Positions 681-48,969 are shown, counted from the stretch's first letter. The stretch: DNA of 64,000 bases from an uncultured Pseudomonadota bacterium (GCA_963770835.1 CAVYRH010000004.1:644764-708763), one strand, 5' to 3'. Notes: generated by a model from the sequence alone, not told the origin. Program-made: numbers and translations.

Positions 681-696
681 TATGACCGCCCGCATA
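681..696. promoter_or_regulatory. TATGA-N6-TCATA palindrome (putative Crp/Fnr site)
   Basis: TATGA CCGCCC GCATA; on the minus strand TAAATT (659-654) lies 21 nt away, facing the 345-578 gene. Confidence 0.6.
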
Positions 697-865
697 ATGG
701 ACCGTCCCGCCGCAAGAAACGATTTCAGAAAAGATTGTGATTTAGCTTTAAATAGGCCTGTAATTCATTTTTCAAAAATATTTTTTTGCGGGAAGTTTTT
801 CGGGAAATATTGGCTAGGGTGACTCCACCCAAGGCGGACGCCGCACTCCACCGCGCGGGCTGGAA

Positions 866-1441
866 TTATTGAATGTTGATGTTGATCGTACTGAAAATGT
901 ATTGGGTGATCTTGTCGTATTTTTGCTTGGATGAATCAATAATCAGGACCATCCACATGATGTTCCGTTTGATGAAGATTTCCGTTTGGAATGTCGCTTT
1001 TTGGTTGTCAGCCATGAAATCACCCCACAACATCACCCCGTCCATGTTGAACCGTTGTATCTTTTTTTGGGCGACCCTGAAATTGGTCACCCCGGTTTGG
1101 CCCTTCATGTTATCGATCGCGCCCTGCGCGGCCCCGTCCAAGTCCCCCATGATCCCCTTGTTGTAAATTACGTTGGTCACCAGGCATTGGTACTCATCTG
1201 AGTTGGTGTTATCGAGGACGTAGGATTCCATCACGTCGATTTTCTTGCGGATTTCCTCTGAAAGATCGACGCTGGAAACCATGAACTTGCCGGGAATGGT
1301 GACCGTCATGTAGTCGCCCACCTGGGCTTTTTGCCAGGGCCCGAAAACCGGCTTGGCTGCGTCATCCGCGCAGAGACTACCGGGGGAAAGGATCAAAGTT
1401 CCTAGGAAGAGGGCTGGAAGCAGGGATTTCATAACTCGCAT
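866..1441 (-). CDS. Secreted hypothetical protein (PsbP/DcrB-like size and pattern, uncertain)
   Basis: Start moved to ATG 1441 (MRVMKSLLPALFLG..., AAGGA upstream); signal peptide then ~165-aa alpha/beta domain. Confidence 0.6.
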   Translation of the reverse strand: MRVMKSLLPALFLGTLILSPGSLCADDAAKPVFGPWQKAQVGDYMTVTIPGKFMVSSVDLSEEIRKKIDVMESYVLDNTNSDEYQCLVTNVIYNKGIMGDLDGAAQGAIDNMKGQTGVTNFRVAQKKIQRFNMDGVMLWGDFMADNQKATFQTEIFIKRNIMWMVLIIDSSKQKYDKITQYIFSTININIQ

Positions 1442-1812
1442 AGAAGGTTCCTTTAAAATAATTTCATTTAACAGAAAAACCACCGTGGATTCGCGGATCA
1501 TTATAGGAGCCGATCTCGGACCTTCAAAATAAATTTTCTTAGACTGGAAGTTTCCAGAAATACAAGTAAAGTTTTGGTAACCACCGAATGGACAAGGGAT
1601 GAAAATCGCCATTCCGTTAAAGCCCAAGATTTGAAAGCCACCAAACTTAAAATCCTCTGACCACTTTCATACGTTTAATCGTCCGTTGAAGATAAAAAAC
1701 AGGCCGATTGGGAATTCCTTCCCCCTTTTATTTCGGGTTGCAGTACCTTTTATTTAAAGCGGGTAAATCCAACGGGAAAATTGGATAATTGCGGCAAAAG
1801 GCGGTTCCGCGA

Positions 1813-2421
1813 ATGATTCGAAAAAAGATCATCATTGTCCTTTTAGCTTCCCTCTTCCTGGCGCGGCCCTTGTTGGCCGATGAAGCGCCCGATCCCAAGG
1901 CAAAACCGAAAACCGACCCACCTCCAGCGGCCATGTCCTTGGAGGATTTGGGCTTCTCATCGGATGACCTGAAAAGCGACCCCCAATTCCAAAAGGACCT
2001 CCAAACAAGGTCCGACATGCTGCAAATCCACCAGACCTTGGGGCTGATTACGGCGGTCCCGATGACCACCGAGTTTGTCCTGGGCATCGTGACCGCCGGG
2101 AACGTTGCCAACGGAAGCACGAACACGGGCCTCCACGAAGGCCTGGGGCTCGCCACCGCCGGGTTATACGTCACCACCGCCATGTTCGCGATTTTGGCCC
2201 CGAAGCCCAAGGGCTTGAAACCCAGCGGCAACACGAAAACCCACGTGGATTTGGTTTGGGTCCATGCGCCTTTGATGGTCGCCGTGCCCATTTTGGGGGA
2301 AATCGTCGACGACCGGGTGCAGAACCACCAACCCTTAGGGGACCTGGGGACGATTCACGGCATCCTGGCGACGGCCCTAGTGGTTTCCTATTTGACATCC
2401 TTAACGGTCATTACTTTTTAG
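1813..2421 (+). CDS. Signal peptide plus 4-TM His-rich membrane protein, possible di-haem cytochrome b (b561-like)
   Basis: Four hydrophobic helices, each with a His (QIHQ, GLHE, WVHA, TIHG); 8 nt upstream of a YceI gene. Confidence 0.5.
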   Translation: MIRKKIIIVLLASLFLARPLLADEAPDPKAKPKTDPPPAAMSLEDLGFSSDDLKSDPQFQKDLQTRSDMLQIHQTLGLITAVPMTTEFVLGIVTAGNVANGSTNTGLHEGLGLATAGLYVTTAMFAILAPKPKGLKPSGNTKTHVDLVWVHAPLMVAVPILGEIVDDRVQNHQPLGDLGTIHGILATALVVSYLTSLTVITF

Positions 2422-2429
2422 GGGGGGAC

Positions 2430-2996
2430 ATGAAAAAAACCTTAGCCTACTCCTTTCTTTTCCTGCTTCCGGCCTTGGCGTTTTCGGCGGATTCCAAAGT
2501 GAATTGGAAGCTTGAGAAGTCCGAATTGACCTATACGGTGACCCATCCCCTCCACGTGGTCCATGGGACCAGCATGGCGGCGCGGGGGGAGGGACTCCGT
2601 AACCCGGACGGCACCTGGCAGTTTTTGGTGGCGGTTCCGGTCCAATCCTTCGACTCCGGGGACAGCAACCGCGACCTCCACATGCAGGAAGTGACCCGGT
2701 CCGGCCTTTATCCCTTGATCAAAGTGACCGCGGTCGTCGCCAAGCTGGCCGAGGGGGAAGCCCCCCAGACCATCACCGCGGACGTTGACATTGAGTTCGC
2801 GGGTAAAAAGGCCCACGACCCCGGGCAGGTATTGGAAGTTTTGGAGTGGAAACCGGGAGAAGTCCACCTCCAAGGCATAATTATCCTGAGCTTGAAAGCC
2901 TTTAATATCACGCCGCCCAGCCTGTTGGCGATGCCGGTCCAGGACGCCGTTCCAGTAAAGCTGGACATGTTTTGGAAGATGGCCGATTTGAAGTGA
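2430..2996 (+). CDS. YceI-family lipid/polyisoprenoid-binding protein
   Basis: ATG 2430 after GGGGGG RBS; signal peptide, SELTYTVTHPLHVVHG, VPVQSFDSGDSNRDLHM, LSLKAFNITPP are YceI-type motifs. Confidence 0.8.
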   Translation: MKKTLAYSFLFLLPALAFSADSKVNWKLEKSELTYTVTHPLHVVHGTSMAARGEGLRNPDGTWQFLVAVPVQSFDSGDSNRDLHMQEVTRSGLYPLIKVTAVVAKLAEGEAPQTITADVDIEFAGKKAHDPGQVLEVLEWKPGEVHLQGIIILSLKAFNITPPSLLAMPVQDAVPVKLDMFWKMADLK

Positions 2997-3045
2997 AATT
3001 TTAGGATTGTTCGGTATACGCAGTTGACCGCCAAAGGGGCTTCAT

Positions 3046-3945
3046 ATGAACGTGGGACTTTGGATTCAAAAACAGCCAAAAATTAATATATTTATCCTCG
3101 CCACATTCCTGTTCCTAGCGGATGAATTTATCGACTACCGCACCGGGCCGGAACTGAACATGTCGTTCTTTCACCTTGTGCCCCTCTTTTTAATCGTTTG
3201 GAACGCGGGGTTCCTTCCCGGGCTCGCCTATTCCTTCTTTTGCGCCATCGTCATGCTCTTCGTGACGATCCACCCCTTGCTCACCCTCCCGACGGCCGTC
3301 CAGGCTTTCAACGTCCTCGCCAACCTCGTCTTCTACCTCGCCTTCATCGCCGTTTTGGCCCAGCTGAAAAAATACCTGGAAAAGGTGACCTTTATGGCCG
3401 AGGTTGACGGCCTCACGAACCTCCTCAACCCGCGCACTTTTTTACAGCGCGCGGAGCGGGAAATCCGGGGAGCCGCCAAGGCCTGGGAGCCGGTCACGGT
3501 CCTCTTCATCGACGTGGACGACTTCAAAAGGCTGAACGATACCTTCGGCCATGGGGCGGGGGACGAAGTCTTGAAATCCATTGGAAAAACCCTGAACGCC
3601 CATTTCCGGAAAAGGGACCTGCGCGCCAGGATGGGCGGGGATGAGTTCGCGGTCCTGTTGCCGGGCTTCCCGGTGGAAGCGGCGAAGGCGGAGATCCCAA
3701 GGTTCCACGAAAATTTGAACCGGTCGCTGGCGGGAACTAAAGGGGCCCCGACTTGCAGCATCGGGGCGGTTTCATTCCTCAAAACCCCCGCCTCCGCCCA
3801 GGCGGCCCTAGCCGAGGCGGACAGCCTGATGTACCAAGTGAAGTTGAGCGGGAAAAACAGCTGGATCTGGAAGGCAACCCCTTCCCAAGGGTCCGGCCCC
3901 GGCGTCTTGTTGGAAAAACCAGTGGCAACCGGCGTCACGAAGTAA
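3046..3945 (+). CDS. Membrane-anchored diguanylate cyclase (GGDEF)
   Basis: N-terminal TM helices; DGLTNLLN, FIDVDDFKRLNDTFGHGAGD, RKRD I-site 5 aa before MGGDEF. Confidence 0.9.
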   Translation: MNVGLWIQKQPKINIFILATFLFLADEFIDYRTGPELNMSFFHLVPLFLIVWNAGFLPGLAYSFFCAIVMLFVTIHPLLTLPTAVQAFNVLANLVFYLAFIAVLAQLKKYLEKVTFMAEVDGLTNLLNPRTFLQRAEREIRGAAKAWEPVTVLFIDVDDFKRLNDTFGHGAGDEVLKSIGKTLNAHFRKRDLRARMGGDEFAVLLPGFPVEAAKAEIPRFHENLNRSLAGTKGAPTCSIGAVSFLKTPASAQAALAEADSLMYQVKLSGKNSWIWKATPSQGSGPGVLLEKPVATGVTK

Positions 3946-3970: not shown

Positions 3971-5602
3971 TTATTTCTTTCCCTGCTGGTACAGATAGTT
4001 CGCCAAGTCCTGGATTTGCGCGGGAGTCAGCTGGTCCGTGAAGCCCGACATGGCCGCGTCCTTGTTGAGCGAAAGCGGGTTCTTGATATAAGCCGCGATG
4101 TAATCCGCGTCACGGCCCTGCCCGATGTGGGACAGGTCGGGGCCGATATCCTCGCCTACGCCGTGGAACTTGTGGCAGGAGGCGCAATTGTCCTCATAAA
4201 GTTTGGGCGCCTGGGCTGAGAAAGCCCCTCCCCCCAAACTGCTCATATAAGCCACCAGGGCCTCCACTTCTCCGTCCAATAGGTTGAAATTGGGCATCTT
4301 GGTGCTGGGTGTGACCTTTTTGGGGTCGCGGAAATGGGCGGCCAACCAGTCCCGGTTGCGCCGCAAACCCACTTCGTCCAAGGCCGGGCCCACGGTTCCG
4401 CCGCGCCCGTTGAGGCTATGGCAATACTGGCAATGGAGGTCCGTGAAAAGCCTTTTCCCTTCCATGATGAGCGGATCTTTCTGGGTAATAGGGTTGGTCA
4501 AGGGCGTGCGGGCGCCCTGGACGGTCAAAATGATGACCCCCAGGACCGCCATCCATCCCGCGGCCACTAGCCATTTGCGGTCCGCCGGGTGGCGCTTGGG
4601 TCCCTTGTCCAAGAAGGGCAGGGCCAGGAGGGCCAGGATTACCAGGGTGGGGAGCAGGACGATGGCGAAAGCCTCGGATTTCCCCGGGAAATATTTCAGA
4701 AGCTGAAATACGGAAAGGAAATACCATTCGGGCCGGGGGTTATAGGTGGTATCGGTGGGATTGGCCAAATCCTCAAGTTCGGCGCCCCTCCACAATGCCA
4801 CAGCCACCACAATGGCGAAGACGATGAAGACGGCAGTGGTGTCCTTGAAAATGATGTAGGGCCAGAAGGATTTTCCCTGGGCCTTCAGCTCGGCGTAACG
4901 GGCCTTGTAGCGGGCCTTCCAATCGGGTTCCTTGCCGGTCGAGGAAGGATCCCTTTCAGGAGGAGCGGAGATGCCGTGCCAAACCACCAAGAAAAGATGG
5001 ACGCCGATGAAAAGGATAGCCAGGATCGGAAGAACCAGCACGTGAATGGCGTAAAACCGGGCCAGGGTGATGGCGCCCAGGTCCTGGCCGCCTTTCATGA
5101 TCTTGGAAAGGGCGTCCCCAAGAAACGGAACCTGCTCCACCATGTGGGCCCCCACGGTGGTGGCCCAGTAGGCCTTTTGGTCCCAGGGCAAAAGATAACC
5201 GGTGAAACCGAAGCCGATCACCAGGAAGAAAAGGAACACGCCCGTGAACCAGGTGACCTCGCGGGGGTATTTATAGGCGCCCATCATGAAGACGCGTAAA
5301 AGGTGCAGGAAGGCGGCCACCACCATGCCGGTGGCGCCCCATTTATGGAGGCTCCTTAAAAAAGACCCCATGGGGACTTCGTTGGTAATGTACCGGACCG
5401 AATCATAGGCGTGGTCGGGCGAGGGGGAGTAATGCATGGCTAAGAGCATGCCCGTGACCACCTGGAGGATGAAAAAGAAAAGGGTGATGCTGCCCAGGGT
5501 GTAACGCCAGCCGACGCCCTTGGGGATGTGGCGGTCGAAGATGACTTCCTTGATCTTGCGCCAGCCGGTGCGCTCATCCAGCCAGTCGAGGATTTTTTTC
5601 AT
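3971..5602 (-). CDS. qcrB: Cytochrome bc complex cytochrome b subunit fused to two c-type haem domains
   Basis: ATG 5602 overlaps the Rieske TGA; cytochrome b motifs (SLHKW, FLHLLR, GYLLPWDQKAYWA, AIHV, GVHL, PEWY) followed by CQYCH and CASCH. Confidence 0.9.
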   Translation of the reverse strand: MKKILDWLDERTGWRKIKEVIFDRHIPKGVGWRYTLGSITLFFFILQVVTGMLLAMHYSPSPDHAYDSVRYITNEVPMGSFLRSLHKWGATGMVVAAFLHLLRVFMMGAYKYPREVTWFTGVFLFFLVIGFGFTGYLLPWDQKAYWATTVGAHMVEQVPFLGDALSKIMKGGQDLGAITLARFYAIHVLVLPILAILFIGVHLFLVVWHGISAPPERDPSSTGKEPDWKARYKARYAELKAQGKSFWPYIIFKDTTAVFIVFAIVVAVALWRGAELEDLANPTDTTYNPRPEWYFLSVFQLLKYFPGKSEAFAIVLLPTLVILALLALPFLDKGPKRHPADRKWLVAAGWMAVLGVIILTVQGARTPLTNPITQKDPLIMEGKRLFTDLHCQYCHSLNGRGGTVGPALDEVGLRRNRDWLAAHFRDPKKVTPSTKMPNFNLLDGEVEALVAYMSSLGGGAFSAQAPKLYEDNCASCHKFHGVGEDIGPDLSHIGQGRDADYIAAYIKNPLSLNKDAAMSGFTDQLTPAQIQDLANYLYQQGKK

Positions 5603-6105
5603 CACGCTTCCCCCTGTGGCAGGATAAACAGGTTGCCGTTTTCTATTTTCACCTGGTAGCGGTTCAGCGGTTTCGGCGGCGGGCCCGAGATGACATGCCC
5701 GTCCTTGGCGAAGGTGCCGCCGTGGCAGGGGCAAAGGAAAGCCTTCTTGGTGGCATCCCAGCGGTAGGGGCAGCCCAGGTGGGTGCAATGGGGGTCATAG
5801 GCTACCCAGTCCTCCCCCTGTTTGACCACCCAGACGGAGCTGCCGCTCTCGATGACCTCCCAGCCGTCCTCCTTGCGGTTGACGTAGTCCACCTTCACCG
5901 GGTCCCCGGCCTGCAGGCCGGCCACAGGGCCCACATTCACCCAGCCTTCCTTTTTGCGGCGCCAAGCGGGGGAAAGAAAATAGGAAACACCCGAACCGCC
6001 GAGGACGAAGGCGATCATCGCCCCCATCAACGTGATCATGCCGATGAGGAAATTCCGGCGTTTGGGGTTTTCCGGGTCCGGGCGCGGGGCGGGGGATTCT
6101 GACAT
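5602..6105 (-). CDS. qcrA: Rieske 2Fe-2S subunit of cytochrome bc complex
   Basis: TAT-like KRRNFL plus TM helix; CTHLGC and CPCHGG boxes; GPPPKPL. Confidence 0.95.
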   Translation of the reverse strand: MSESPAPRPDPENPKRRNFLIGMITLMGAMIAFVLGGSGVSYFLSPAWRRKKEGWVNVGPVAGLQAGDPVKVDYVNRKEDGWEVIESGSSVWVVKQGEDWVAYDPHCTHLGCPYRWDATKKAFLCPCHGGTFAKDGHVISGPPPKPLNRYQVKIENGNLFILPQGEA

Positions 6106-6151
6106 AATTCTCTCCTGAGCGAATTGGGGGCTCTAATTAAAAGTCGGGTTT

Positions 6152-6183
6152 AAAAAAAGGCCGGGTCCAAAGGGCCCGGCCTT
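6152..6183 (-). terminator. Intrinsic terminator between cyc2 and Rieske genes
   Basis: Minus strand AAGGCCGGGCCC-TTT-GGACCCGGCCTT followed by a T run; stem 6157-6168/6172-6183 with one mismatch. Confidence 0.7.
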
Positions 6184-6205
6184 CGCTACGTTAACTGAGG
6201 TTTGG

Positions 6206-7624
6206 TTAAAAAGCGAGCCAGGCCATGGCCATCAAAGTGTTGTTATCCGAGGCTTTCCGTGCGGTGGCCCCGTCATAACCCAGCTCGGTGGTCGGATCCA
6301 CATTGTCCCCGCCGCCGTTGAACTTCCAATAGGCGGTGTACTGCAGGGTGAGCTTGGTGTTAAGCCAGGGCAGGTAATTGATCTCGTAAATCATGCCGTT
6401 GGACGTGGGATCACCCGTGGCGCTGCCGCTATAGGGTGTCGGGGTGTAAATCACGTCATCCGTAGTCCCACCCAGGCCAAAATAAGCCACGGTGAAACCG
6501 ATGGACCTTTGGTAATAAAAGGTCCCGTTGATCCGGAAAAGCTCCAACTGGTCGTCCAGGTTGGCTGACCCGGGGGCGGCTTCGTTGAAAGTGGAATTCA
6601 GCGTCTGGTATTCCCGGATCCAGGAAACCTGGAGGGAAGGCTGGATTTCCTTGGTGATGTACTGGGCTTGGGCATCGATGCCGAAATCCGTGAAGTTGTC
6701 CGCGGTGAACCCGGCCGGAATGCCGGCCGCCGGGGCCACATCCTCGGAAAACACGAAGCCCCCTAATTCGAAGGAGCTGTCGCCCACTTCCTGGTTGAAA
6801 GCCACGCGGGCGTAAGGCGCATAGCCCTGAATGGAGGCCGAACCCACGGCGGCCGGCGCCTGGGGCGCGCTGCGGTAGGCGCTGGCTTCCACGTAAACCA
6901 GCTTGTCCAGGTTGAGGTAAGCGCCCAAGCCGCCCACGCTACCTCCCAGAGTCGTTATTTGGGGGGCGGCGGTGGGCTGGGGGATGTTGGCGGAGGTGGC
7001 GTAGGGGAAGCCCCAGGCCGGAACCGTATTCCAGACGTCCTGGACGGTCGGGTTGTTGTTGAGGGTCAGGCCGAAGATTGCGTCACGCCCGTCCAGTTGG
7101 AAATGGGTGGCGTAGCGCACGTCGGTGTTGTCGGAGTGGAATACCCCCGAGCCGAAATCATAGGTGGCCTGTATAAAAGCCCCGATATTGGGCGAAATCT
7201 CCCCTGCGTAGAAAAGGCTCAATTGCTCGGGGAAAGCCACGTAGCCCTGCAAGTCGGTGTCGGGGCCTGGAACGGCGGTGGTGGGGTTCTTCACGAAGCT
7301 GTCTGAAATCTGCAGCATGGCCGAAAGGGGAGGAGCCTTGTCGATCTCCATCGACACGTCGCCGGTCTTGTCGTCCTTTTCCGTCACTTTGTCCGATTCA
7401 CCCGAAACGTAACCGTTCAATTTGAACCAGCGGCCGTAGGGGGTTAATTCGGGGAAGGCCGTATGACAGGCCATACAAGACATTCCCGTCTGCCGCGAAA
7501 AGCTGGGGACGGCCTGGGCCGGGGCGGAAAAAGAACCCCAAAGGACCGCGGATAAAAGCAGGAAAGACCAGGCGAAGGGGACGCCCATCCCTTTTTTTCT
7601 CACGGCCAGGGAATTCTCGCTCAT
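6206..7624 (-). CDS. cyc2: Cyc2-type fused monohaem cytochrome c - porin outer-membrane protein
   Basis: After the signal peptide: VPSFSRQTGMSCMACHTAFPELTPYGRWFKLNGY, matching the Cyc2 N-terminal signature (A. ferrooxidans LPSFARQTGWSCAACHTSYPQLTPMGRMFKL, recalled from memory); 472 aa, amphipathic beta strands, C-terminal Phe. Confidence 0.85.
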   Translation of the reverse strand: MSENSLAVRKKGMGVPFAWSFLLLSAVLWGSFSAPAQAVPSFSRQTGMSCMACHTAFPELTPYGRWFKLNGYVSGESDKVTEKDDKTGDVSMEIDKAPPLSAMLQISDSFVKNPTTAVPGPDTDLQGYVAFPEQLSLFYAGEISPNIGAFIQATYDFGSGVFHSDNTDVRYATHFQLDGRDAIFGLTLNNNPTVQDVWNTVPAWGFPYATSANIPQPTAAPQITTLGGSVGGLGAYLNLDKLVYVEASAYRSAPQAPAAVGSASIQGYAPYARVAFNQEVGDSSFELGGFVFSEDVAPAAGIPAGFTADNFTDFGIDAQAQYITKEIQPSLQVSWIREYQTLNSTFNEAAPGSANLDDQLELFRINGTFYYQRSIGFTVAYFGLGGTTDDVIYTPTPYSGSATGDPTSNGMIYEINYLPWLNTKLTLQYTAYWKFNGGGDNVDPTTELGYDGATARKASDNNTLMAMAWLAF

Positions 7625-8187: not shown

Positions 8188-8203
8188 TATGAGCTTCGTC
8201 ATA
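8188..8203. promoter_or_regulatory. TATGA-N6-TCATA site upstream of the cytochrome c-cyc2 unit
   Basis: TATGA GCTTCG TCATA; minus-strand TAGTAT (8166-8161) 21 nt away. Confidence 0.75.
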
Positions 8204-8450: not shown

Positions 8451-8466
8451 TATGACGTTTCTCATA
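8451..8466. promoter_or_regulatory. TATGA-N6-TCATA site
   Basis: TATGA CGTTTC TCATA, 60 nt upstream of the 8527 gene. Confidence 0.7.
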
Positions 8467-11542: not shown

Positions 11543-11558
11543 TATGACCGACGTCATC
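11543..11558. promoter_or_regulatory. TATGA-N6-TCATA-like site
   Basis: TATGA CCGACG TCATC in the divergent intergenic region 11437-11751. Confidence 0.6.
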
Positions 11559-13966: not shown

Positions 13967-13982
13967 TATGACTCCAGTCATA
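13967..13982. promoter_or_regulatory. Perfect TATGAC-N4-GTCATA site in a divergent promoter
   Basis: cTATGACTCCAGTCATAg; TATAGT at 14005 (gap 22, +) and TAAAAT at 13946-13941 (gap 20, -). Confidence 0.8.
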
Positions 13983-18076: not shown

Positions 18077-18092
18077 CCTGAGCCGGGTCATA
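18077..18092. promoter_or_regulatory. TATGA-N6-TCATA-like site
   Basis: CCTGA GCCGGG TCATA; TACATT at 18114, 21 nt downstream. Confidence 0.6.
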
Positions 18093-19986: not shown

Positions 19987-20002
19987 TATGACTTAAATCA
20001 TT
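19987..20002. promoter_or_regulatory. TATGA-N6-TCATA-like site
   Basis: TATGA CTTAAA TCATT; minus-strand TAAGTT (19965-19960) 21 nt away, facing the radical SAM gene. Confidence 0.7.
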
Positions 20003-20191: not shown

Positions 20192-20207
20192 TATGACCAA
20201 TGTCATA
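20192..20207. promoter_or_regulatory. Perfect TATGAC-N4-GTCATA site
   Basis: aTATGACCAATGTCATAt; TAAAGT at 20228 (gap 20). Confidence 0.8.
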
Positions 20208-31013: not shown

Positions 31014-31029
31014 AATGATTTAGGTCATA
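31014..31029. promoter_or_regulatory. TATGA-N6-TCATA-like site
   Basis: AATGA TTTAGG TCATA, 63 nt upstream of the first RIC-like gene. Confidence 0.65.
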
Positions 31030-31866: not shown

Positions 31867-31882
31867 TATGACTTAAGTCATA
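31867..31882. promoter_or_regulatory. Perfect TATGACTTAAGTCATA palindrome
   Basis: acTATGACTTAAGTCATAgt; TAAAAT at 31905 (gap 22). Confidence 0.8.
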
Positions 31883-33556: not shown

Positions 33557-33572
33557 TATGACCACAGTCATG
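33557..33572. promoter_or_regulatory. TATGA-N6-TCATA-like site
   Basis: TATGA CCACAG TCATG; CATAAT at 33594 (gap 21). Confidence 0.75.
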
Positions 33573-37311: not shown

Positions 37312-37327
37312 TATGAGCCAGGTCATG
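37312..37327. promoter_or_regulatory. TATGA-N6-TCATA-like site
   Basis: TATGA GCCAGG TCATG; TAAGGT at 37350 (gap 22). Confidence 0.65.
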
Positions 37328-41077: not shown

Positions 41078-42789
41078 GCCAGGAAGAGCACGCGCAAGGG
41101 GAACACGGATATGAGGAGCACGCACACGGGCACCAGCAAAGCTTCCTAAGCCATTACATTTTCTCGACGGACCATAAGATGATCGGGAAGCAGTTCCTCC
41201 TGCTTGCCGCCTTCATGGCCTGTTTCGGCGGGTTCATGGCCTATCTCATCCGCTGGGAAGTGGCTTTCCCCAACACCCCGGCCCCCTTCTTCGGGCTGGT
41301 GACCCCCGACAAGTTCAACGCCATCATCACCCTGCACGGGACCATCATGATCTTCTTCGTGGGAATGCCCTTCCTTTCGGCCTTTCCCTCCAATTTCCTG
41401 GTGCCGCTCATGCTGGGGGCGAGGGACATGGCTTTCCCCAAACTGAACATGGCTTCCTTCTGGCTGACCTTTACGGGAGCCGTCCTTATCATTTCTTCCA
41501 TATTTGTTCCCGGGGGCCCTGTGGCAGGCGGTTGGGTGGGTTATCCCCCCCTCTCGGCCAGTTCGGAATTCACCGGCGTCAAAGACGGGGCGATCCTCTG
41601 GATCCTGGCCCTCGCCTGCGCCTTGATCTCCTCCAGCATCGGGGGCTTGAACTACCTGGTGACGGCCGCCACCTTGAGGGCGCCGGGTATGACGGTAGAC
41701 CGGATTCCCATGACCGTCTGGTTCCTTTTGGCCTCGGCCATCACCTTTTTCTTCTCCGCAGGGCCCATCATCGCGGGCGCCTTCATGATGTTCATGGACA
41801 ACGCCTTCGGCACGGGTTTTTTCCTTCCGCAGAAGGGCGGGGAACCCATGCTGTGGGAGCACTTGTTCTGGTTTTTCGGGCACCCTGAGGTTTACGTGCT
41901 CTTTTTCCCGGCCCTGGGGTTTGGATTGGACATCATGGCCACCTTCACCCGGAAGCCCGTCTTCGGCTACAAGCTCATCCTTTGGTGCACGGGCATCGCG
42001 GTGGCCTTGAGCTACATCGTTTGGGCCCACCATATGTTCATGTCGGGGTTGAACCCTTTCCTGGCCACGCCTTTTTCCATCACCACGATCCTCATTTCAG
42101 TGCCTTTCGCCATCATCATCTTCTGCATGTTCGCGACCCTGCGGCACGGGTCCATCCGGCTGGAACTTCCCATGCTGTGGATTTTGGGCTTCCTGGCGAC
42201 ATTCCTCGTCGGCGGTTTGACGGGCATCTTTTTGGGTTCGGCCACGGCGGACATTTACCTCCATGGGACTTATTTCGTCATCGCCCATTTCCATTACACC
42301 CTTTTTCCCTCGGTGTTCTTCGGGGGGTTCGGGGCCGTTTATTACTGGTTCCCCAAGATCTACGGCCGCAAAATGAACGAAAAGCTGGGCTTCCTGCACC
42401 TGGCCCTGACTTTCATCTTTTTCAACGGGACTTTCTGGCCCTTATTCAGGGTCGGGATGGGAGGGATGATCCGCCGCATCGCGGACCCGTCCTTTTATCC
42501 CCAATACCACCAGTTCCAGGGCCTGAACGCCTTCTCAACCGTTTCCGCCATTTGCCTGATCATGAGCCAGGTGATTTTCCTTTGGAACATGGTCTTGAGC
42601 CTGGCCCATGGGCCGAAAGCCGAGAAAAACCCCTACCAATCCAACACCCTGGAATGGATAGCCGATTCACCCCCGCCCCACGGCAATTGGGGGGACACCC
42701 TGCCGGTGGTGACCTGTGGGCCCTATGAGTACAGCAAGCCCGGGGAAGCGGATGATTGGCACCCCCAGGCCACCAATCTTCCCGTTTAA
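41074..42789 (+). CDS. coxA: Cytochrome c oxidase subunit I, family A1
   Basis: TDHKMIG, TLHGTIM, WFFGHPEVY, WAHHM, AHFHY; ATG 41074. Confidence 0.97.
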   Translation: MSQEEHAQGEHGYEEHAHGHQQSFLSHYIFSTDHKMIGKQFLLLAAFMACFGGFMAYLIRWEVAFPNTPAPFFGLVTPDKFNAIITLHGTIMIFFVGMPFLSAFPSNFLVPLMLGARDMAFPKLNMASFWLTFTGAVLIISSIFVPGGPVAGGWVGYPPLSASSEFTGVKDGAILWILALACALISSSIGGLNYLVTAATLRAPGMTVDRIPMTVWFLLASAITFFFSAGPIIAGAFMMFMDNAFGTGFFLPQKGGEPMLWEHLFWFFGHPEVYVLFFPALGFGLDIMATFTRKPVFGYKLILWCTGIAVALSYIVWAHHMFMSGLNPFLATPFSITTILISVPFAIIIFCMFATLRHGSIRLELPMLWILGFLATFLVGGLTGIFLGSATADIYLHGTYFVIAHFHYTLFPSVFFGGFGAVYYWFPKIYGRKMNEKLGFLHLALTFIFFNGTFWPLFRVGMGGMIRRIADPSFYPQYHQFQGLNAFSTVSAICLIMSQVIFLWNMVLSLAHGPKAEKNPYQSNTLEWIADSPPPHGNWGDTLPVVTCGPYEYSKPGEADDWHPQATNLPV

Positions 42790-42798
42790 GGAGCCCTT

Positions 42799-43425
42799 AT
42801 GGAAAAGAACGCCGCTGTGCCGGTCGTTGGTTTTCAACCCGGTGACCAATTGCCCACGGGCAATTATTCCGGCCCTGTGGGGCTGACCCCCGGGCGCTTG
42901 GGCATCTGGGTCCTGATCGCTTCCGAAATCGTGCTCTTCGCGGGGCTGCTGGGTTCCTTCATCCTCATGCGGCTGATCAACCCTGCCTGGGCGGAAGAGG
43001 CCCGACATTTGAACCTTTACGCCGGGACGCTCAACTCGCTGGTCCTCATCACCAGCAATTTTTTCATGATGAAATCTTCCAAATCTGTCGCTGAGGAAAG
43101 AACGGACGATGCCAAGAAATTCATGGTGTTCACCATGGTTTTAGGAATTGTCTTTTTGGGGATAAAAGCTTTCGAGTATTCGGGCGAGTTCGCCCATGGG
43201 GAGTTCCCCACGAGCGGGGGGTTTTGGTCCTTTTATTTCTTAATGACGGGAATCCATGCGCTTCATATCATCGGAGGGCTCATCGCCATCCTCCTGCTGT
43301 GGTTTAAAACCCGGCACGAGCCCCTTCTTTCCTTGAGCAGCCGGGCCAATATTACGGGTATCTATTGGTCTTTCGTGGAAGTGGTCTGGATTTTCCTATT
43401 CCCCCTGCTTTATTTACTGGCTTAA
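42799..43425 (+). CDS. coxC: Cytochrome c oxidase subunit III (first copy)
   Basis: GIWVLIASEIVLF, NSLVLITS, FLGIKAFEY, TGIHALH, YWSFVEVVW. Confidence 0.9.
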   Translation: MEKNAAVPVVGFQPGDQLPTGNYSGPVGLTPGRLGIWVLIASEIVLFAGLLGSFILMRLINPAWAEEARHLNLYAGTLNSLVLITSNFFMMKSSKSVAEERTDDAKKFMVFTMVLGIVFLGIKAFEYSGEFAHGEFPTSGGFWSFYFLMTGIHALHIIGGLIAILLLWFKTRHEPLLSLSSRANITGIYWSFVEVVWIFLFPLLYLLA

Positions 43426-43435
43426 GGAGGCCGAC

Positions 43436-43732
43436 ATGAGTTCCAAGGCATCGACGAATCACGCCGCTATTTTTTCCAGTTTGTTGGTTCTTTCCCTCTG
43501 CGCGGTGGGGATCACCTTCCTGCACCTTTCGATCATGGCCAATAACCTCGCCATTTTCGGCGTGGCGGCGGTGATGGCGGGCTTGGTCCTGTTCCAATAC
43601 ATGAACCTTAAAGGGGAGGGGGGATTGATTTATTGGGTCCTCATCGTCCCCTTGGCGCTATTCGCCATCCTCCTATTTTTGCTCATGCCTGATGTTTGCC
43701 ATTTCTCCGTTGATTTCTTGCGGGGCCTTTGA
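43436..43732 (+). CDS. Cytochrome c oxidase subunit IV-like
   Basis: Three TM helices with FQYMNLKGEG (FMHLK-type motif). Confidence 0.75.
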   Translation: MSSKASTNHAAIFSSLLVLSLCAVGITFLHLSIMANNLAIFGVAAVMAGLVLFQYMNLKGEGGLIYWVLIVPLALFAILLFLLMPDVCHFSVDFLRGL

Positions 43733-43777
43733 TTTCCTTAGGGGATCAATCAGCTTTATTTTTAAAAGGCTGGTGAA

Positions 43778-44356
43778 ATGACGGTTACCACCATGGATTC
43801 CAACCAACGAAATTTGATTTCCGCCAAACTGGGGATTTTGCTTTTCATTACCGCCGAAGTCATGTTTTTCTCCGGCCTGATCAGCGCCTTTGTCGTGTTC
43901 CGCTTCAGCCCCGTTTCGTGGCCCCCGCCGGGCCAGCCCCGGCTTCCCCTTGGGGTCACAGCCTTTAATACCCTGGTGCTTCTCTTAAGCGGGGTGACCT
44001 TTCAACTGGCTTTCCGGGCCCTGAAATCCGTACGGTATCAGGCATTTAAAAAGCTCCTGACCTGGACGGGAGCCCTGGGGGCACTTTTTCTTTGCGTTCA
44101 AGGATTTGAGTGGATTCGATTACTTCATTATGGGTTGACCTTGCACTCCAGCATTTTTGGAGGGTTTTTCTATTGCCTCGTTGGGACCCATGGCCTTCAC
44201 GTCTTGGGGGGGCTTATCGCCTTGCTATGGGTCTTGAAGCGGGCATGGGCGGATGCTTATGATTCTACCCAGGCCCTCGGCGTGGAAATCTGCAGGATCT
44301 ACTGGTTTTTCGTCGTGGGTCTTTGGCCCATTATCTTCTTCCTGGTTTATTTATAA
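43778..44356 (+). CDS. Cytochrome c oxidase subunit III (second copy)
   Basis: GILLFITAEVMFF, NTLVLLLSG, FLCVQGFEW, GTHGLHV, YWFFVVGLW. Confidence 0.9.
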   Translation: MTVTTMDSNQRNLISAKLGILLFITAEVMFFSGLISAFVVFRFSPVSWPPPGQPRLPLGVTAFNTLVLLLSGVTFQLAFRALKSVRYQAFKKLLTWTGALGALFLCVQGFEWIRLLHYGLTLHSSIFGGFFYCLVGTHGLHVLGGLIALLWVLKRAWADAYDSTQALGVEICRIYWFFVVGLWPIIFFLVYL

Positions 44357-44596
44357 ATGGACGCCCTGATGACTAAAAAGAGTAATTTTTTTATTTTGAC
44401 TTTGATCCGCCGATGGATGCCCGTGGTTTTATGGGGCATGCCTTGGTTCGCACGAGCTTGTCCCCGATGCGTGGATGCAACCCCCTACCGTTCAGGCCTT
44501 CAACTGGCCGTTGCCGTCCTTCTTCCATTGCCTTTTGCCTTAGGATTTTTTCTATACCGGTTCCTTCGCCGCGCCTTGGCTTCGGAACCGAAATAA
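44357..44596 (+). CDS. Small membrane protein with ACPRC motif, oxidase-operon associated
   Basis: Directly abuts coxC copy 2; ARA|CPRC then one TM helix. Confidence 0.6.
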   Translation: MDALMTKKSNFFILTLIRRWMPVVLWGMPWFARACPRCVDATPYRSGLQLAVAVLLPLPFALGFFLYRFLRRALASEPK

Positions 44597-44809
44597 ACCT
44601 TCATATTTTTTGGTCCCCCCGGCTCATTTCCAGTAAACCCTTATTCCGCATGCCTTGGCAAATCCGCCGCGTTACAGGCCTTGTTTTTCCTCCCGAATAA
44701 AACCTAGCTTTAAAATTAGTTCATATTGGGCCTGATTTCACCCGAATCAACAAATTTTCACACCCGCGGTCCGGGGGTGGGAGGGCCCAAGATGAGGAGG
44801 GAGGAGGCC

Positions 44810-45100
44810 ATGGCCCCTAAAAATAGTCCCAGTTCCCATGAAATAACCTTCGGCTTGCTGTTCCTATTGGTGTTTTGTTCGGTGGGGGCAAGGTTGATCG
44901 ATTTTCCGCCACTGACGAATAACCTAATTATCTTTGCTTCGGCGTTTTCGATGGCGGTCTTGGTTATTACCCAGTATATGGGCCTCAAGATCGAGGGAAT
45001 GGTGGTGAGATTGACGGTGGCGGTACCTTTAATTCTTTTCGCCGTCCTAGTGGGAATCTTATTAATGGATATCGCCCATGTGCCACTGCCCCATCTTTGA
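44810..45100 (+). CDS. Second cytochrome c oxidase subunit IV-like protein
   Basis: GAGGAGG RBS; NNLIIF...TQYMGLKIEG parallels NNLAIF...FQYMNLKGEG of 43436-43732. Confidence 0.7.
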   Translation: MAPKNSPSSHEITFGLLFLLVFCSVGARLIDFPPLTNNLIIFASAFSMAVLVITQYMGLKIEGMVVRLTVAVPLILFAVLVGILLMDIAHVPLPHL

Positions 45101-45197: not shown

Positions 45198-45213
45198 TAT
45201 GACCCGGATCATA
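45198..45213. promoter_or_regulatory. TATGA-N6-TCATA site
   Basis: caaTATGACCCGGATCATAttg; TAAACT at 45235 (gap 21). Confidence 0.8.
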
Positions 45214-45277
45214 TTGGGCCCTGTTTTGTCCTCTTAAACTAGGACGCTACCTCCAACACGGGGGTGGAGGAGGCTTT

Positions 45278-46099
45278 ATGATCGCTGTCCAGTCAAAACC
45301 CGAGGAGACCACCCCGGAAACGTTCGAGAAATTTGACAAGCCAAACGCCAAGAATTGGGATGGCCTTTCCCGCATGGCCTTCGCGGCCAATTGGGACCCG
45401 GAGTCCGCCATCAACTGGGACCTGCCGATTGAATTGGGCCAGGTGAGGGAAGGATGGATCAATATCCTGCATTACTTCTATGAGGGGGAATGGCAGGGGC
45501 TGGAAATCATCCAACGGCTGATGAACAAGGCATCGCACTTATTCAAAAATCCGGAGATGGTGACTTACTATTCCACCCAATGCAGTGATGAGGCAAAACA
45601 CCTGTTCGTCTTCCGCCGGTACCTCCAAAAACTTAATTCGCCTCCCTCCAAGCAAAAGGCCTTCGACCTCCTGGTCTGGTTGGCGACTTCCGGGCCCATG
45701 GCAGTGGAACGCTGGATTCTCGGGACTTTCTTCACTGAAACCATGGCGGGAGCCATATTCCAGAAAACCCTGGAACTCCCGGCGATCGACCCCACGGGCA
45801 AGGAAATGATCCGCTGGCAGTTGAAGGACGAATCCCGGCATATCGCGGGCACCAAATTAGGGGTTCAAACCCTCATGAATCATTGTGGGCCCGTGAAAAC
45901 CCGGATCCTGAAACTTTGGTGGAAGCTATTCGTGAAGCTGGCGATTAAGGAAGTGCGGGCTTTAAAGCCTTATGGCGACCAAGTTGGCATGGATCCGGAG
46001 TACATATTGAGGCGGTCCTTCGCCAAAATGGCGGAGCTCAAGGAATTCCAAGAAAAGTTCCTCGATAATCCCCAAGCCCGGTTTTTTCTGAGGGGTTGA
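45278..46099 (+). CDS. Ferritin-like di-iron enzyme (AurF/acyl-ACP-desaturase-like fold)
   Basis: NWDPESAINWD, YEGEWQG, QCSDEAKH, FTETMA, KDESRHI. Confidence 0.8.
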   Translation: MIAVQSKPEETTPETFEKFDKPNAKNWDGLSRMAFAANWDPESAINWDLPIELGQVREGWINILHYFYEGEWQGLEIIQRLMNKASHLFKNPEMVTYYSTQCSDEAKHLFVFRRYLQKLNSPPSKQKAFDLLVWLATSGPMAVERWILGTFFTETMAGAIFQKTLELPAIDPTGKEMIRWQLKDESRHIAGTKLGVQTLMNHCGPVKTRILKLWWKLFVKLAIKEVRALKPYGDQVGMDPEYILRRSFAKMAELKEFQEKFLDNPQARFFLRG

Positions 46100-47376
46100 T
46101 GATGGAATCCAACTCGTTTCAGGGTTCTTTTTTCCGGTTCACTAGCCGGTTTACCCAATGGTTCCCCCATGGGGGGGCGAAACTCTTGGACGGCCTTTTT
46201 TTCCCAATTTTGAGCAACGGATTCCTATTGCGCCATTTTCAAGGCAGGAATTTGAAAATGTTGAAGGGCATTCGTTCCTTTCGCCGCCTGCTCGTCATTG
46301 CGGACATCCATATCGGCGACGCCGTCCTGGCCCAGACGGCCGTGCCGGCCTTAAAGGATTTTTTCCCCGAAGCCCAAGTGGATTTCGCGGTCAAGAAGTC
46401 CGTGGGGAGCCTTGTGGGGGGCCATCCCGACCTCTCACAGGTCTGGCCCATCTTCACAGGCGGGCAATTTCCCAATGCGGGGGATATCCTTGGCATCCAG
46501 GAACTATCGGCGGAGTACGACGCCGTTTTCAATTTTTGCCCCTTCTTCGGGGAGAATCATTTCCCCAAGGAAAGCAGGGTTTTCCACGTTACGAGCCATG
46601 TCTCCGTTTTTGCCCGCAATGAACGGAGGCCGGACCCGCCGAACCATATCACTTACCAAGTCCATCGGTTTATTTATGACCTGTTATCATCCTTGTTTCC
46701 GATCCGCCGGGCCCGCCTTTTCGAGAGCCCGCAAGTTTCCCTGTCGCCGGAAGCGATACGGGAAGCGAACGATTTCATGCAATCCTTCACCCCGCCGGAT
46801 GGGGACGCCGTTGTGTTCCTCAACCCCGATACCGCCTCGCCCTTTACCCAGATTCCTTTCCGGTTCCAAGCGGAGATTCTGAAAGGCCTCGCCGACTTAC
46901 CCTGCCGAATTCTTTTGGGCGAGGGGCACACCGACAGGGGAATCGGCGAAAAATTATTATGGACCCTCCCGCTCCTAAAACGCGGCCGGGTTCAACTGGT
47001 TCCCGCCAGGCTTTCCCTGGAAACCTACACGGCTTTAATCGACCACAGCGATTTATTTCTTTCGGGCGATACGGGGCCCCTCCACCTGGCGGCTGCCCGC
47101 AAAACGGACAAGAGTGGAAAAAGTCAACTGCACAACCGCACGACGGTTTTCAGCGTATTCGGGGCCACCCCTCCCCGTTTTTCGGGATATGACTCCGGCC
47201 CGGGGTTCTTGGAGAGTGGACAGGATGCACCCGCCAAAGCCTACCAATCGGAAAGCGCTTGTCGGAACATCACTTGCATTCACAAGATGGGAAAGGTTTG
47301 TGACGCGAAGGGTTGCTTTGAGGATCTTGACTCAAAAAAAATACTAGCCGATATCCGAACCCGGATAGGGGGTTGA
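46096..47376 (+). CDS. Glycosyltransferase family 9 protein
   Basis: HIGDAVL, LKDFFPEAQVDF, LETYTALIDHSDLFLSGDTGPLHLAAA, VFGAT. Confidence 0.85.
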   Translation: MMMESNSFQGSFFRFTSRFTQWFPHGGAKLLDGLFFPILSNGFLLRHFQGRNLKMLKGIRSFRRLLVIADIHIGDAVLAQTAVPALKDFFPEAQVDFAVKKSVGSLVGGHPDLSQVWPIFTGGQFPNAGDILGIQELSAEYDAVFNFCPFFGENHFPKESRVFHVTSHVSVFARNERRPDPPNHITYQVHRFIYDLLSSLFPIRRARLFESPQVSLSPEAIREANDFMQSFTPPDGDAVVFLNPDTASPFTQIPFRFQAEILKGLADLPCRILLGEGHTDRGIGEKLLWTLPLLKRGRVQLVPARLSLETYTALIDHSDLFLSGDTGPLHLAAARKTDKSGKSQLHNRTTVFSVFGATPPRFSGYDSGPGFLESGQDAPAKAYQSESACRNITCIHKMGKVCDAKGCFEDLDSKKILADIRTRIGG

Positions 47377-47656: not shown

Positions 47657-47672
47657 TATGACTCTCGTCATT
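47657..47672. promoter_or_regulatory. TATGA-N6-TCATA-like site
   Basis: TATGA CTCTCG TCATT; minus-strand TATGAT (47634-47629) 22 nt away. Confidence 0.7.
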
Positions 47673-47743
47673 CTGCGTTGGCTCAAAATTGGAAATATTT
47701 CCTCATGAAAAGGCCATAAAAACGAACTTCCACAAAAAAGAGG

Positions 47744-47774
47744 TATGACTTGGATCATTATGACCAAGGTCATA
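47744..47774. promoter_or_regulatory. Two abutting TATGA-N6-TCATA sites upstream of the Crp/Fnr gene
   Basis: TATGACTTGGATCATT (47744-47759) and TATGACCAAGGTCATA (47759-47774); TACCAT at 47796 (gap 21). Confidence 0.8.
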
Positions 47775-47879
47775 CTGCGGGCAAGGGTACCCTCCTACCA
47801 TGAGTTGGACAGGTTCGAACCGCTCCAAAGGAGCCGCACCATGTTTCATATACAACCCGCCGCCGGCAGGAGGCCTTTT

Positions 47880-48539
47880 ATGCCAGCCAAGTCTTTTATC
47901 TCCAATCTTGATATCTTCAAAAAGATACCCGCTCCCCAATTGGCCGAGATTGAAAAAAAGATGGTGGAGAAAAAATACGCCAAGGGCGAATCGCTGTTCC
48001 TGGAAGGGGACCCGGCTGAAAACGTTTGGTTCGTCAAGGAAGGCCACGTGAAGGCCGTCATCCATACCACCGGGGGGAAAGATTTGACCCTGTGCATGGT
48101 CGGCGCCAACAGCCTGTTCGGCACCTGTTGTTGTTTTGGAGGCGGACAATATCCCTGCCATACCGTTGCGGAGACGGAAGTGACGGTGGTTTCCTATCCC
48201 ATGCAGGAATTTTTGGCCCTCATTGAAAAGTACCCCGAAATGTCCAAGGTGGTTATCCTCCAGCTTTCCAACCGGCTGCGCCAGTCCAAGGACATGCAGA
48301 CTTTCGACAAAGAAAGCGTTGAGAAAAGAATCCTGCACGTCCTGGTCAATCTCGTATCCGAATTTGGAAACACCATTCCCCTCACCCGCCGGGAGATTTC
48401 CGAAATGACTGGCACTACCGTGGAGACCTGTATCCGGACTTTTTCAATCCTTGAGAAGGACGGATTGGTTTCCAGCGCAAGGGGGAAGATCACAGTGAAG
48501 AACATCCAGGACCTGACAACGCGCCTGGAAGAACTCTGA
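47880..48539 (+). CDS. Crp/Fnr-family transcriptional regulator with Cys-rich effector domain
   Basis: LFLEGDPAENVWFVKEGHVK, SLFGTCCCFGGGQYPCH, HTH LTRREISEMTGTTVETCIRTFS; start ATG 47880 (CAGGAGG), alternative ATG 47841. Confidence 0.92.
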   Translation: MPAKSFISNLDIFKKIPAPQLAEIEKKMVEKKYAKGESLFLEGDPAENVWFVKEGHVKAVIHTTGGKDLTLCMVGANSLFGTCCCFGGGQYPCHTVAETEVTVVSYPMQEFLALIEKYPEMSKVVILQLSNRLRQSKDMQTFDKESVEKRILHVLVNLVSEFGNTIPLTRREISEMTGTTVETCIRTFSILEKDGLVSSARGKITVKNIQDLTTRLEEL

Positions 48540-48622
48540 CAACCCCGGAATCACTTCGGCGCTAACAAACTAAAATCCCTCAGTAAAACGGAATCCGTCG
48601 GTGTTTCAGGAAGGGTTAGGTC

Positions 48623-48841
48623 TTAAAGGATGCCGCGGAAAACCTCAGAGGGTTTGCAAGCAAGAGCCCGCACGATGTTGAAAATTTTGGTGATGGAGGG
48701 GTTCCGAGAGCCTTTTTCAATGTAACTAACATAGACAGGATGGATTTCGGCATACCCTGCCAATTTCTCTTGGGTCCAACCGCGTCTCTTACGAATAGCC
48801 CTGACGTTTTTTCCTAACTTCTTCAAATTAATTTGATCCAT
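48623..48841 (-). CDS. XRE-family HTH regulator
   Basis: LGKNVRAIRKRRGWTQEKLAGYAEIHPVYVSYIEKGSRNPSI. Confidence 0.9.
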   Translation of the reverse strand: MDQINLKKLGKNVRAIRKRRGWTQEKLAGYAEIHPVYVSYIEKGSRNPSITKIFNIVRALACKPSEVFRGIL

Positions 48842-48953
48842 TAGTTCTCTCCAAATTTGAGAACCGTTTCAGGATTTATCCTTTAACGATCCGTTAATTA
48901 GCCGTCCGTCAAGTTTGGCTAACTCAAAGTTAAGACAAGTTGAGGAAAGTCCT

Positions 48954-48969
48954 TATGATTTGGGTCATA
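48954..48969. promoter_or_regulatory. TATGA-N6-TCATA site
   Basis: TATGA TTTGGG TCATA; minus-strand TAACTT (48932-48927) 21 nt away, facing the XRE gene. Confidence 0.75.

Follow-up and report, generated by a model that had tools for sequence, protein, structure and literature searches.

What reads the short palindromes that recur upstream of genes in a 64-kb stretch of DNA from an uncultured bacterium, and what do they do there? The stretch (64,000 nucleotides labelled as Pseudomonadota, GCA_963770835.1 CAVYRH010000004.1:644764-708763, and taken here to come from candidate phylum FCPU426; hereafter the window) carries repeated copies of a 16-base palindrome, TATGANNNNNNTCATA (TATGA-N6-TCATA, hereafter the box), which a first-pass annotation had taken for the operator of a 17-site regulon with class II promoters and a regulator of the CRP/FNR family. 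Our analysis of the window and of related loci leads us to the reading, to which we give a probability of about 0.8, that the boxes are operators of a dimeric CRP/FNR-family factor, most probably the product of the gene at 47880-48539, and that this factor would act by class II activation.

Exact boxes occurred eight times in the window, compared to 0.01 expected from dinucleotide-preserving shuffles of the 64-kb sequence. With up to one mismatch there were 17 boxes (0.40 expected), and with up to two there were 36 (8.5 expected). When TATGA-Nk-TCATA was counted for every spacer length from 0 to 20, all eight matches had k = 6 and none was found at any other length. The core was similarly selective at the base preceding TGA: the window held 16 copies of ATGA-N6-TCAT, 3 of TTGA-N6-TCAA, and 1 each of the GTGA and CTGA forms, and no consensus box of CRP, FNR, HcpR1 or DNR. 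Position 6 is C in about 70% of the boxes and A or T is favored immediately outside them, with no other extra preference. The spacers and flanks of the copies are unrelated to one another, indicating that the boxes resemble binding sites rather than copies of a repeat. The TATGA-N6-TCATA pattern in the window is real and stands far above its shuffled controls, as the first-pass annotation had supposed. The list of sites needed two corrections: 16 of the 17 coordinates are sites with at most one mismatch, the other (18077, CCTGAGCCGGGTCATA) is a weak candidate with two, and a site with one mismatch at 1656 (TCTGACCACTTTCATA) had been overlooked. No box with at most one mismatch lies between 48969 and the end of the window, in agreement with the earlier statement that the sites stop before 49 kb, and two-mismatch matches beyond that point are at about chance level.

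We mapped the boxes onto a rough gene map assembled from open reading frames, Pfam and NCBIfam. All 17 boxes, together with the candidate at 18077, fell outside coding DNA, as had been claimed, although intergenic sequence accounts for only some 16% of the DNA from 1 to 49000 (P ~4e-14); they precede about fifteen operons. At 11 of the 17 sites at least one flank of the box carried a hexamer of the form TAnnnT at a distance of 20-22 nt, giving 12 hexamers where about 0.65 were expected (P ~7e-12). Two of these had a gap of 20, six a gap of 21 and four a gap of 22, with about 0.22 expected for each. Three further sites had other hexamers at gap 21, namely CATAAT (33557), TATACC (31014) and TTGAAT (11543), so the thirteen sites originally credited with a hexamer was about right. 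With the hexamer placed at -12 to -7, the centre of the box would lie at -41.5 ± 1. None of the hexamers at the window sites is preceded by a TGn extended -10, and the -35 position is taken up by the box. A CRP/FNR-type site centred at about -41.5, over the -35 region, is the arrangement of class II activation, and the sequences strongly support an activator-dependent class II promoter anatomy for the box sites.

The proposed binder is a 219-residue protein with cNMP_binding and HTH_Crp_2 domains; PF00027 and PF13545, with or without PF00325, are recorded on all of its close homologues. Its sequence places it in the CRP/FNR superfamily, with a predicted beta-roll and C-terminal winged helix-turn-helix (HTH). 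Matches to the CRP, NtcA, FNR and FixK models were of superfamily level, and the protein fell below the cut-off of every NCBIfam equivalog (66 of 266 bits for CRP, 66 of 245 for NtcA and 45 of 228 for FNR). Its best relatives in the PDB, among CRP-family chains, reached only E ~1e-17. No exact copy of the protein was present in the assembly index. A search of 1.84 billion cluster representatives returned 24 clusters at E <= 1e-30, indicating that the subfamily is small, and a profile search from the regulator alignment recovered close homologues only and nothing further. The recognition helix, V181-E182-T-C-I185-R186, aligns with R180-E181-x-x-G184-R185 of CRP and V208-E209-x-x-S212-R213 of FNR. 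CRP R180 and G184 and FNR V208 and S212 were reportedly identified by Spiro et al. in 1990 as the discriminating positions. The helix signature E-T/S-x-I-R is nearly invariant among 30 representatives, down to 31% identity. Helix residues and motif co-vary in the CRP/FNR family (Rodionov 2005, PMC1274295). In the regulator studied here, isoleucine at the position of FNR Ser212 fits A-TGA rather than T-TGA or G-TGA.

Is the association between this regulator and the box found elsewhere? The regulator gene led us to 16 related loci (L001-L016) with 62-83% identity, 15 from FCPU426 metagenome-assembled genomes (MAGs; some labelled just "bacterium" or "proteobacterium") and one from Firestonebacteria. 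They hold 50 boxes with at most one mismatch, and gap 21 alone carries 16 TAnnnT hexamers compared to 0.64 expected (P ~2e-17). A box lies 5' of the regulator orthologue in 15 of the 16 loci, which bears out the earlier proposal of autoregulation. In four of them (L005, L008, L011 and L012) the regulator gene has the layout box-N21-TAGGAT or TAATTT-N6-ATG. In these and in a fifth such layout, in L022 (Omnitrophota, see below), the first base of the start codon is exactly 41.5 nt away from the centre of the box. The predicted +1 thus falls on the A of the start codon, so leaderless mRNAs are predicted, and these layouts provide a natural check of the inferred start. The class II geometry first proposed for the window is accordingly borne out by the TAnnnT peak at gap 21 in the window and the 16 related loci, and by the five leaderless layouts. 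Many database entries start the regulator 13 codons earlier (232 residues), in which case the box would lie within the coding sequence.

Boxes were also conserved at other target genes. The orthologue of the window's cytochrome c in L015 (68% identity) has a box upstream, the orthologue of its cyclic nucleotide monophosphate (cNMP)-binding protein in L012 (59% identity) has two, and orthologues of the 177-residue protein in L015 and in L014 (Firestonebacteria) retain one. A metagenome scan with the RIC-like protein at 33762-34541 found a single locus, L021, in which the orthologue (60% identity) is preceded by the same box variant in the same box-N21-CATAAT layout. In other MAGs, acetyl-CoA synthetase/hydrolase, GNAT fusion, deacetylase, histidine kinase and porin genes close to the regulator have boxes in front of them, and the variety of these neighbors indicates that the regulon is broad and differs between genomes. 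We noted in addition that, 3-6 kb 5' of the regulator in L002-L008, L015 and L016, the box-preceded genes encode ADP-forming acetyl-CoA synthetase-GNAT fusions, acetyl-CoA hydrolase/transferase, AMP-forming acetyl-CoA synthetase, a histone-deacetylase-like protein and histidine kinases, which suggests that acetate metabolism and protein acetylation are controlled via the box in other FCPU426 MAGs.

More distant regulators use the same box. Omnitrophota homologues with 36-38% identity carry the helix TVETAIR or TTESAIR. In their three loci (G+C content 61-65%) we counted 7 boxes with up to one mismatch, compared to 0.47 expected. Each of the three has a box, with TAnnnT at gap 21, in front of a hemerythrin gene, and in L022 the layout box-N21-TATCGT-N6-ATG stands before the second, tandem paralogue of the regulator. 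L022 (10001-17865) and L024 (7475-17637) each have two tandem CRP/FNR paralogues, and L026 (8155-12759) has one. These regulators adjoin genes for an NIR_SIR-type reductase, hemerythrin, a NirK-like multicopper protein, YceI, GGDEF and cytochrome c biogenesis proteins; YceI-like and GGDEF genes are likewise present at 2256-3945 of the window. In the Flammeovirgaceae (Bacteroidota), FNR-like genes encode the helix TTESVIR together with an N-terminal cysteine cluster, and exact TATGAT-N4-ATCATA boxes occupy orthologous positions in two genomes (L017 at 5826 and 10630; L018 at 3171 and 10627). One of these boxes precedes a gene for an 854-residue, putatively ribonucleotide-reductase-like protein. 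Counts with up to one mismatch were at chance level in these AT-rich loci, so the Flammeovirgaceae boxes are a hint only. What the sequences show directly is the motif, with its enrichment and geometry, and the fact that it is conserved across genomes and phyla.

How might the regulator act on these sites? We propose that at most targets its dimer would sit on a box that stands in for the -35 element and is centred at about -41.5, and from there would switch on weak promoters equipped with a TAnnnT -10 but with neither a -35 nor an extended -10. The half-site read would be A-TGA-C, with Ile185, at the position of FNR Ser212 and CRP Gly184, selecting the A:T pair. Tight binding is predicted for the A-TGA form TATGACnnnnGTCATA only, and not for the TTGAC or TGTGA variants. 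Through its own upstream box the regulator would also control itself. In the window this promoter region holds three boxes: the centres of 47744 and 47759 are 15 bp apart, on opposite faces of the helix, and the third lies about 100 bp farther upstream. This tandem layout (47657-47774) was not seen in the orthologous loci.

We compared the proposed system with characterized members of the family. FNR and FixK (E. coli FNR, TTGAT-N4-ATCAA) share with it the beta-roll and HTH, the palindrome register xTGAy-N4-y'TCAx', the centre at -41.5, the helix Val, Glu and Arg at FNR positions 208, 209 and 213, and a hypoxia/redox-type regulon (cytochromes, radical SAM proteins, autoregulation). By contrast, the box here has A rather than T, Ile replaces Ser212, the FNR score is far below its cut-off and the window lacks FNR boxes. 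Nor did we find in the regulator the N-terminal cysteine cluster of FNR (C20, C23 and C29) that with C122 holds [4Fe-4S]; the regulator has no cysteine in its N-terminus, and four cysteines lie in the cNMP pocket. CRP (TGTGA-N6-TCACA) has the same 16-bp TGA-N6-TCA core, one position off (G to A), and class II geometry, but differs in its cAMP ligands (see below), in R180 and G184, which are Val and Ile here, and in its score, and none of its boxes is present. NtcA is set apart by score and by its box, GTA-N8-TAC. Among the motifs of Rodionov et al. (2005, PMC1274295) the nearest is TTGACnnnnGTCAA, the box read by HcpR1 in delta-proteobacteria and cyanobacteria, which is one base per half-site apart (TTGAC compared to ATGAC here). 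HcpR1 and the NO-responsive DNR and NnrR also share RIC/DnrN-type di-iron targets and, in the Omnitrophota only, NirK-like/NIR_SIR neighbors, and JGI names some regulator homologues "nitrogen oxide reductase regulator". However, position 180 is Val here, as in FNR, and Ser or Pro in HcpR1 (PMC1274295). The boxes of HcpR, DNR and NnrR, TTGAC/TTGAT/TTGCG-N4 or GTAAC-N4-GTTAC, differ from the one here (PMC1274295). Their regulons centre on hcp, nir, nor or nos, and the Pfam/NCBIfam gene map of the window shows no hcp, nor or nir. Similarity to HcpR1, DNR and NnrR is at superfamily level only, and haem binding, as in DNR and NnrR, is not indicated in the regulator.

The HcpR, DNR and NnrR motifs catalogued in Rodionov 2005 (PMC1274295) do not include TATGA-N6-TCATA, the survey of Matsui 2013 offered no motif catalogue of use here, and a literature search for the motif in several spellings found no relevant paper in the library searched. 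The FCPU426 literature, among the matches listed, apparently consists of community surveys. RedB (PMC9603854) was considered as a relative and rejected, its ChIP motif being non-palindromic and AT-rich and its cysteines undiscussed. The distinct specificity claimed by the first-pass annotation is supported, with A as the discriminator compared to G in CRP and T in FNR, HcpR1 and DNR, and with no described match found. A CRP/FNR regulon is a well-known type of system; new here are the DNA specificity, the make-up of the sensor pocket and the phyla in which the system occurs, and also the pairing of Ile (position 184/212) with a discriminating A.

We next consider what the regulator might sense. 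It was aligned to an E. coli CRP sequence that matches PDB chain 1g6n_A from end to end; regulator and CRP share 28% identity across 184 residues. The cAMP ligands E72, R82 and S83 of CRP correspond to T82, P92 and C93, with which the sensor domain could not bind cAMP. Further cysteines take pocket positions, C72 aligning with S62, C83 with L73 and C84 with G74 of CRP; cysteines are located at positions 72, 83, 84, 85 and 93. In close homologues C72, C83, C84 and C93 are each conserved to 90% or more, and from the alignment the cAMP pocket appears to have been rebuilt as a four-cysteine site. These residues could hold a metal or iron-sulphur (Fe-S) centre that reports O2, nitric oxide (NO) or redox state. 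The cysteine pocket, the hemerythrin/RIC-type targets across phyla and the nitrite-reductase neighborhood in the Omnitrophota all point in this direction, and we tentatively put forward O2, NO or redox, conveyed by a labile metal or Fe-S centre, as the signal, at somewhat less than even odds.

Several points weigh against reading the boxes as class II operators of the local regulator. Five of the 18 sites (1656, 8451, 18077, 47657 and 47744) have no hexamer at gap 20-22, and box 8451 has TAGGAT at gap 15. The predicted transcription start sites (TSSs) assume a sigma-70-type -10 in a phylum for which no promoter map exists. The organisms are uncultured, and we infer from sequence which protein binds, whether it activates, and what ligand and signal it responds to. 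Only closer members of the family have the Cys4 signature, distant users of the box having other cysteine patterns, so the sensing chemistry may differ between clades. Finally, paralogues with the same helix occur in pairs on one contig in other MAGs (P0008 with P0056, 44.3 kb; P0050 with P0115, 32.6 kb), so the local gene may not be the only, or the main, binder.

This last point leads to the most serious alternative, in which another CRP/FNR paralogue, encoded outside the window, binds the boxes mainly or jointly and the local gene is one tier of a hierarchy. Cascades of FNR or ANR with DNR or FixK provide a precedent for two regulators with one common box, and both tandem paralogues in the Omnitrophota carry E-T/S-x-I-R, the second with a box upstream. 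However, the gene at 47880-48539 is the only HTH-bearing CRP/FNR gene within the 64 kb, lies inside the site cluster and has three boxes upstream. We regard a paralogue outside the window as a possible but doubtful main or joint binder.

The boxes could instead be repressor operators, at which the regulator occludes the -35 region and turns the genes off. A site at -41.5 overlaps this region and could block RNA polymerase, and box 8451, with its gap of 15, and the tandem 47744/47759 resemble occlusion or fine-tuning sites. By contrast, promoters with TAnnnT only, lacking a -35 and TGn, are typical of activator dependence, and the spacing is constant within 1 nt in four phyla, which activation needs and steric repression does not. 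Repression is thus improbable, and class II activation remains our preferred reading. Still less probable, to the point that only a slim chance is left, is a binder from another family, such as NikR, a Fur/Zur-like protein, Rrf2/NsrR, RirA, or a local XRE, LuxR or response-regulator protein. Several other HTH genes are present in the window, and TATGA/TCATA is also the half-site of E. coli NikR (GTATGA-N16-TCATAC). However, the spacer is strictly 6, with no match at N16 or N9; TGA-N6-TCA at -41.5 is a CRP/FNR signature; and the box stands directly 5' of CRP/FNR genes with an E-x-x-I-R helix in FCPU426, Firestonebacteria and Omnitrophota. The boxes of NikR, Fur/Zur, NsrR and RirA (TGA-N9-TCA) were ruled out on spacer length. 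That the palindromes have no regulatory role and reflect chance, composition, a REP- or MITE-like repeat, an RNA hairpin or a restriction-modification target is barely credible: their palindromic form and the near-chance two-mismatch matches after 49 kb would fit, but not the 8 sites compared to 0.01 and 17 compared to 0.40, the unique N6 spacer, the unrelated spacers and flanks, the wholly intergenic placement, the set distance to a -10-like hexamer or a 5-bp stem too weak for structural RNA, and Rfam and tRNA scans of the window gave no match.

The sites and their genes are collected in Table 1. Canonical boxes precede the putative periplasmic and outer-membrane electron-transfer operon, two RIC-like genes, two rubrerythrin-like genes, the TIGR04053 and B12-binding radical SAM genes, and genes for the NMO-like protein, the AurF-like protein with GT9, the M50-CBS protease, the AAA_33 protein, a small secreted protein, the XRE regulator and the CRP/FNR regulator itself. 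Among the products of the regulon are thus a protease and a kinase-like protein. Two of the functional labels in the first-pass annotation could be kept in part. The 472-residue protein of the 8188 operon, which had been called cyc2, combines a signal peptide and a single CxxCH motif with a barrel-like C-terminus whose last residue is Phe, but matches no family, so it is best described as Cyc2-like by predicted architecture only. The radical SAM protein at 18834-19928, described as haem-related, is a member of the TIGR04053 family and kin to AhbD and NirJ; it scores below the cut-offs of both. Both RIC-like di-iron proteins likewise score under the NCBIfam RIC cut-off, and one of them has ScdA_N and hemerythrin domains. 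The stand-alone cNMP-binding protein has 168 residues and no HTH, is a conserved target (L012, 5364-6150), and may act together with the CRP/FNR regulator or against it.

Table 1 Boxes, associated hexamers and genes, in window coordinates unless a locus is named
Feature	Position	Match	Hexamer	Associated genes or remarks
Box, faces minus	681..696	TATGACCGCCCGCATA, 1 mismatch	-10 TAAATT 654-659	77-residue secreted protein, 345-578(-)
Box	1656..1671	TCTGACCACTTTCATA, 1 mismatch	no canonical -10 spacing	5' of putative lipoprotein gene, 866-1441(-)
Box, faces minus	8188..8203	exact	-10 TAGTAT 8161-8166	cytochrome c operon
Genes of the 8188 operon	3971-8102			cytochrome c 7668-8102; Cyc2-like monohaem barrel (putative) 6206-7624; Rieske 5602-6105; cytochrome b/dihaem c fusion 3971-5788
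Box, non-canonical	8451..8466	exact	TAGGAT, gap 15	stand-alone cNMP-binding protein 8527-9033, then dihaem cytochrome c
Box, faces minus	11543..11558	TATGACCGACGTCATC, 1 mismatch	weak -10 TTGAAT 11516-11521	177-residue protein, function unassigned, 10903-11436(-)
Box, divergent promoter region	13967..13982	exact	TATAGT 14005-14010	M50 protease-CBS gene 14046-15149(+)
Same box, other side	13967..13982	exact	TAAAAT 13941-13946	AAA_33 protein gene 12285-13907(-)
Weak candidate	18077..18092	CCTGAGCCGGGTCATA, 2 mismatches	no -10 at expected spacing	5' of PPK2-CHAD (minus)
Box, faces minus	19987..20002	TATGACTTAAATCATT, 1 mismatch	-10 TAAGTT 19960-19965	TIGR04053 radical SAM/SPASM gene 18834-19928(-)
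Box	20192..20207	exact	-10 TAAAGT 20228-20233	rubrerythrin/ferritin-like genes 20273-20779 and 20776-21249
Box	31014..31029	AATGATTTAGGTCATA, 1 mismatch	TATACC 31051-31056	hemerythrin/RIC-like gene 31093-31833
Box	31867..31882	exact	-10 TAAAAT 31905-31910	483-residue protein with NMO-like domain, 32058-33509
Box	33557..33572	TATGACCACAGTCATG, 1 mismatch	CATAAT 33594-33599	RIC-like (ScdA_N + hemerythrin) gene, real start 33762, end 34541
Box	37312..37327	TATGAGCCAGGTCATG, 1 mismatch	-10 TAAGGT 37350-37355	B12-binding radical SAM gene 37596-39224
Box	45198..45213	exact	-10 TAAACT 45235-45240	AurF-like di-iron protein 45278-46099 and GT9 glycosyltransferase 46096-47376
Distal box of regulator	47657..47672	TATGACTCTCGTCATT, 1 mismatch		centre about -143.5 from predicted regulator TSS
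Second box of regulator	47744..47759	TATGACTTGGATCATT, 1 mismatch	no -10 at gap 20-22	centre about -56.5; 1-base overlap with box 47759
Putative autoregulatory box	47759..47774	TATGACCAAGGTCATA, exact	-10-like TACCAT 47796-47801	predicted TSS about 47808
CRP/FNR-family regulator, proposed binder	47880..48539 (+)			219 residues; AGGAGG ribosome-binding site
Box, faces minus	48954..48969	exact	-10 TAACTT 48927-48932	72-residue XRE-type HTH gene 48623-48841(-)
Leaderless layouts	L005, L008, L012 9952-10003; L011 3021-3072; L022 10702-10753			

Other features of the window lie near the boxes or at the edge of their range. A haem-copper oxidase cluster at 40241-45100 comprises COX2, COX1, two COX3-like and two COX4-like genes; the sole box upstream of it is 37312, about 2.9 kb off and before the B12 radical SAM gene. 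An apparent operon at 21959-30974, with overlapping stop and start codons and no box upstream, encodes a FecR-domain protein (329 residues), a barrel-like 375-residue protein and a 2301-residue protein without a Pfam domain. At 565-578, ATGAAACGCTTCAT matches the core over the start codon of the 77-residue secreted-protein gene and is probably a chance palindrome arising from ATG...CAT. Past the last box, 48970-49700 is about 700 bp of AT-rich DNA with no evident gene, next after the XRE gene in window coordinates. Beyond it the G+C content falls from about 55-59% to 47-50%, and ketoacyl-synthase-type lipid/polyketide genes follow with no box; the AT-rich stretch may mark the boundary of the box-rich gene cluster.

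What would this system mean for the organisms that carry it? More speculatively, and with the chances against the proposal as a whole, the regulators might form an unrecognized CRP/FNR clade in several mostly uncultured phyla, FCPU426, Firestonebacteria, Omnitrophota and possibly some Bacteroidota, with an Ile/A-TGA code and, in the FCPU426 branch, a Cys4 Fe-S or metal pocket sensor that would tie O2, NO or redox to a Cyc2-type extracellular electron-transfer operon and Fe-S repair genes. The boxes provide a regulon and a promoter model, with its -10, class II spacing and leaderless starts, for phyla that have no cultured member or mapped promoters. They would add a third value, A with Ile, to a CRP/FNR code that pairs G with Arg/Gly and T with Val/Ser, and the Cys4 pocket is a possible new sensing module. 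Redox or NO sensing would be tied to RIC-type Fe-S repair and to a Cyc2-like operon with a putative role in iron oxidation, a connection that may make it easier to interpret from metagenomes how these bacteria live in soil, peat and groundwater.

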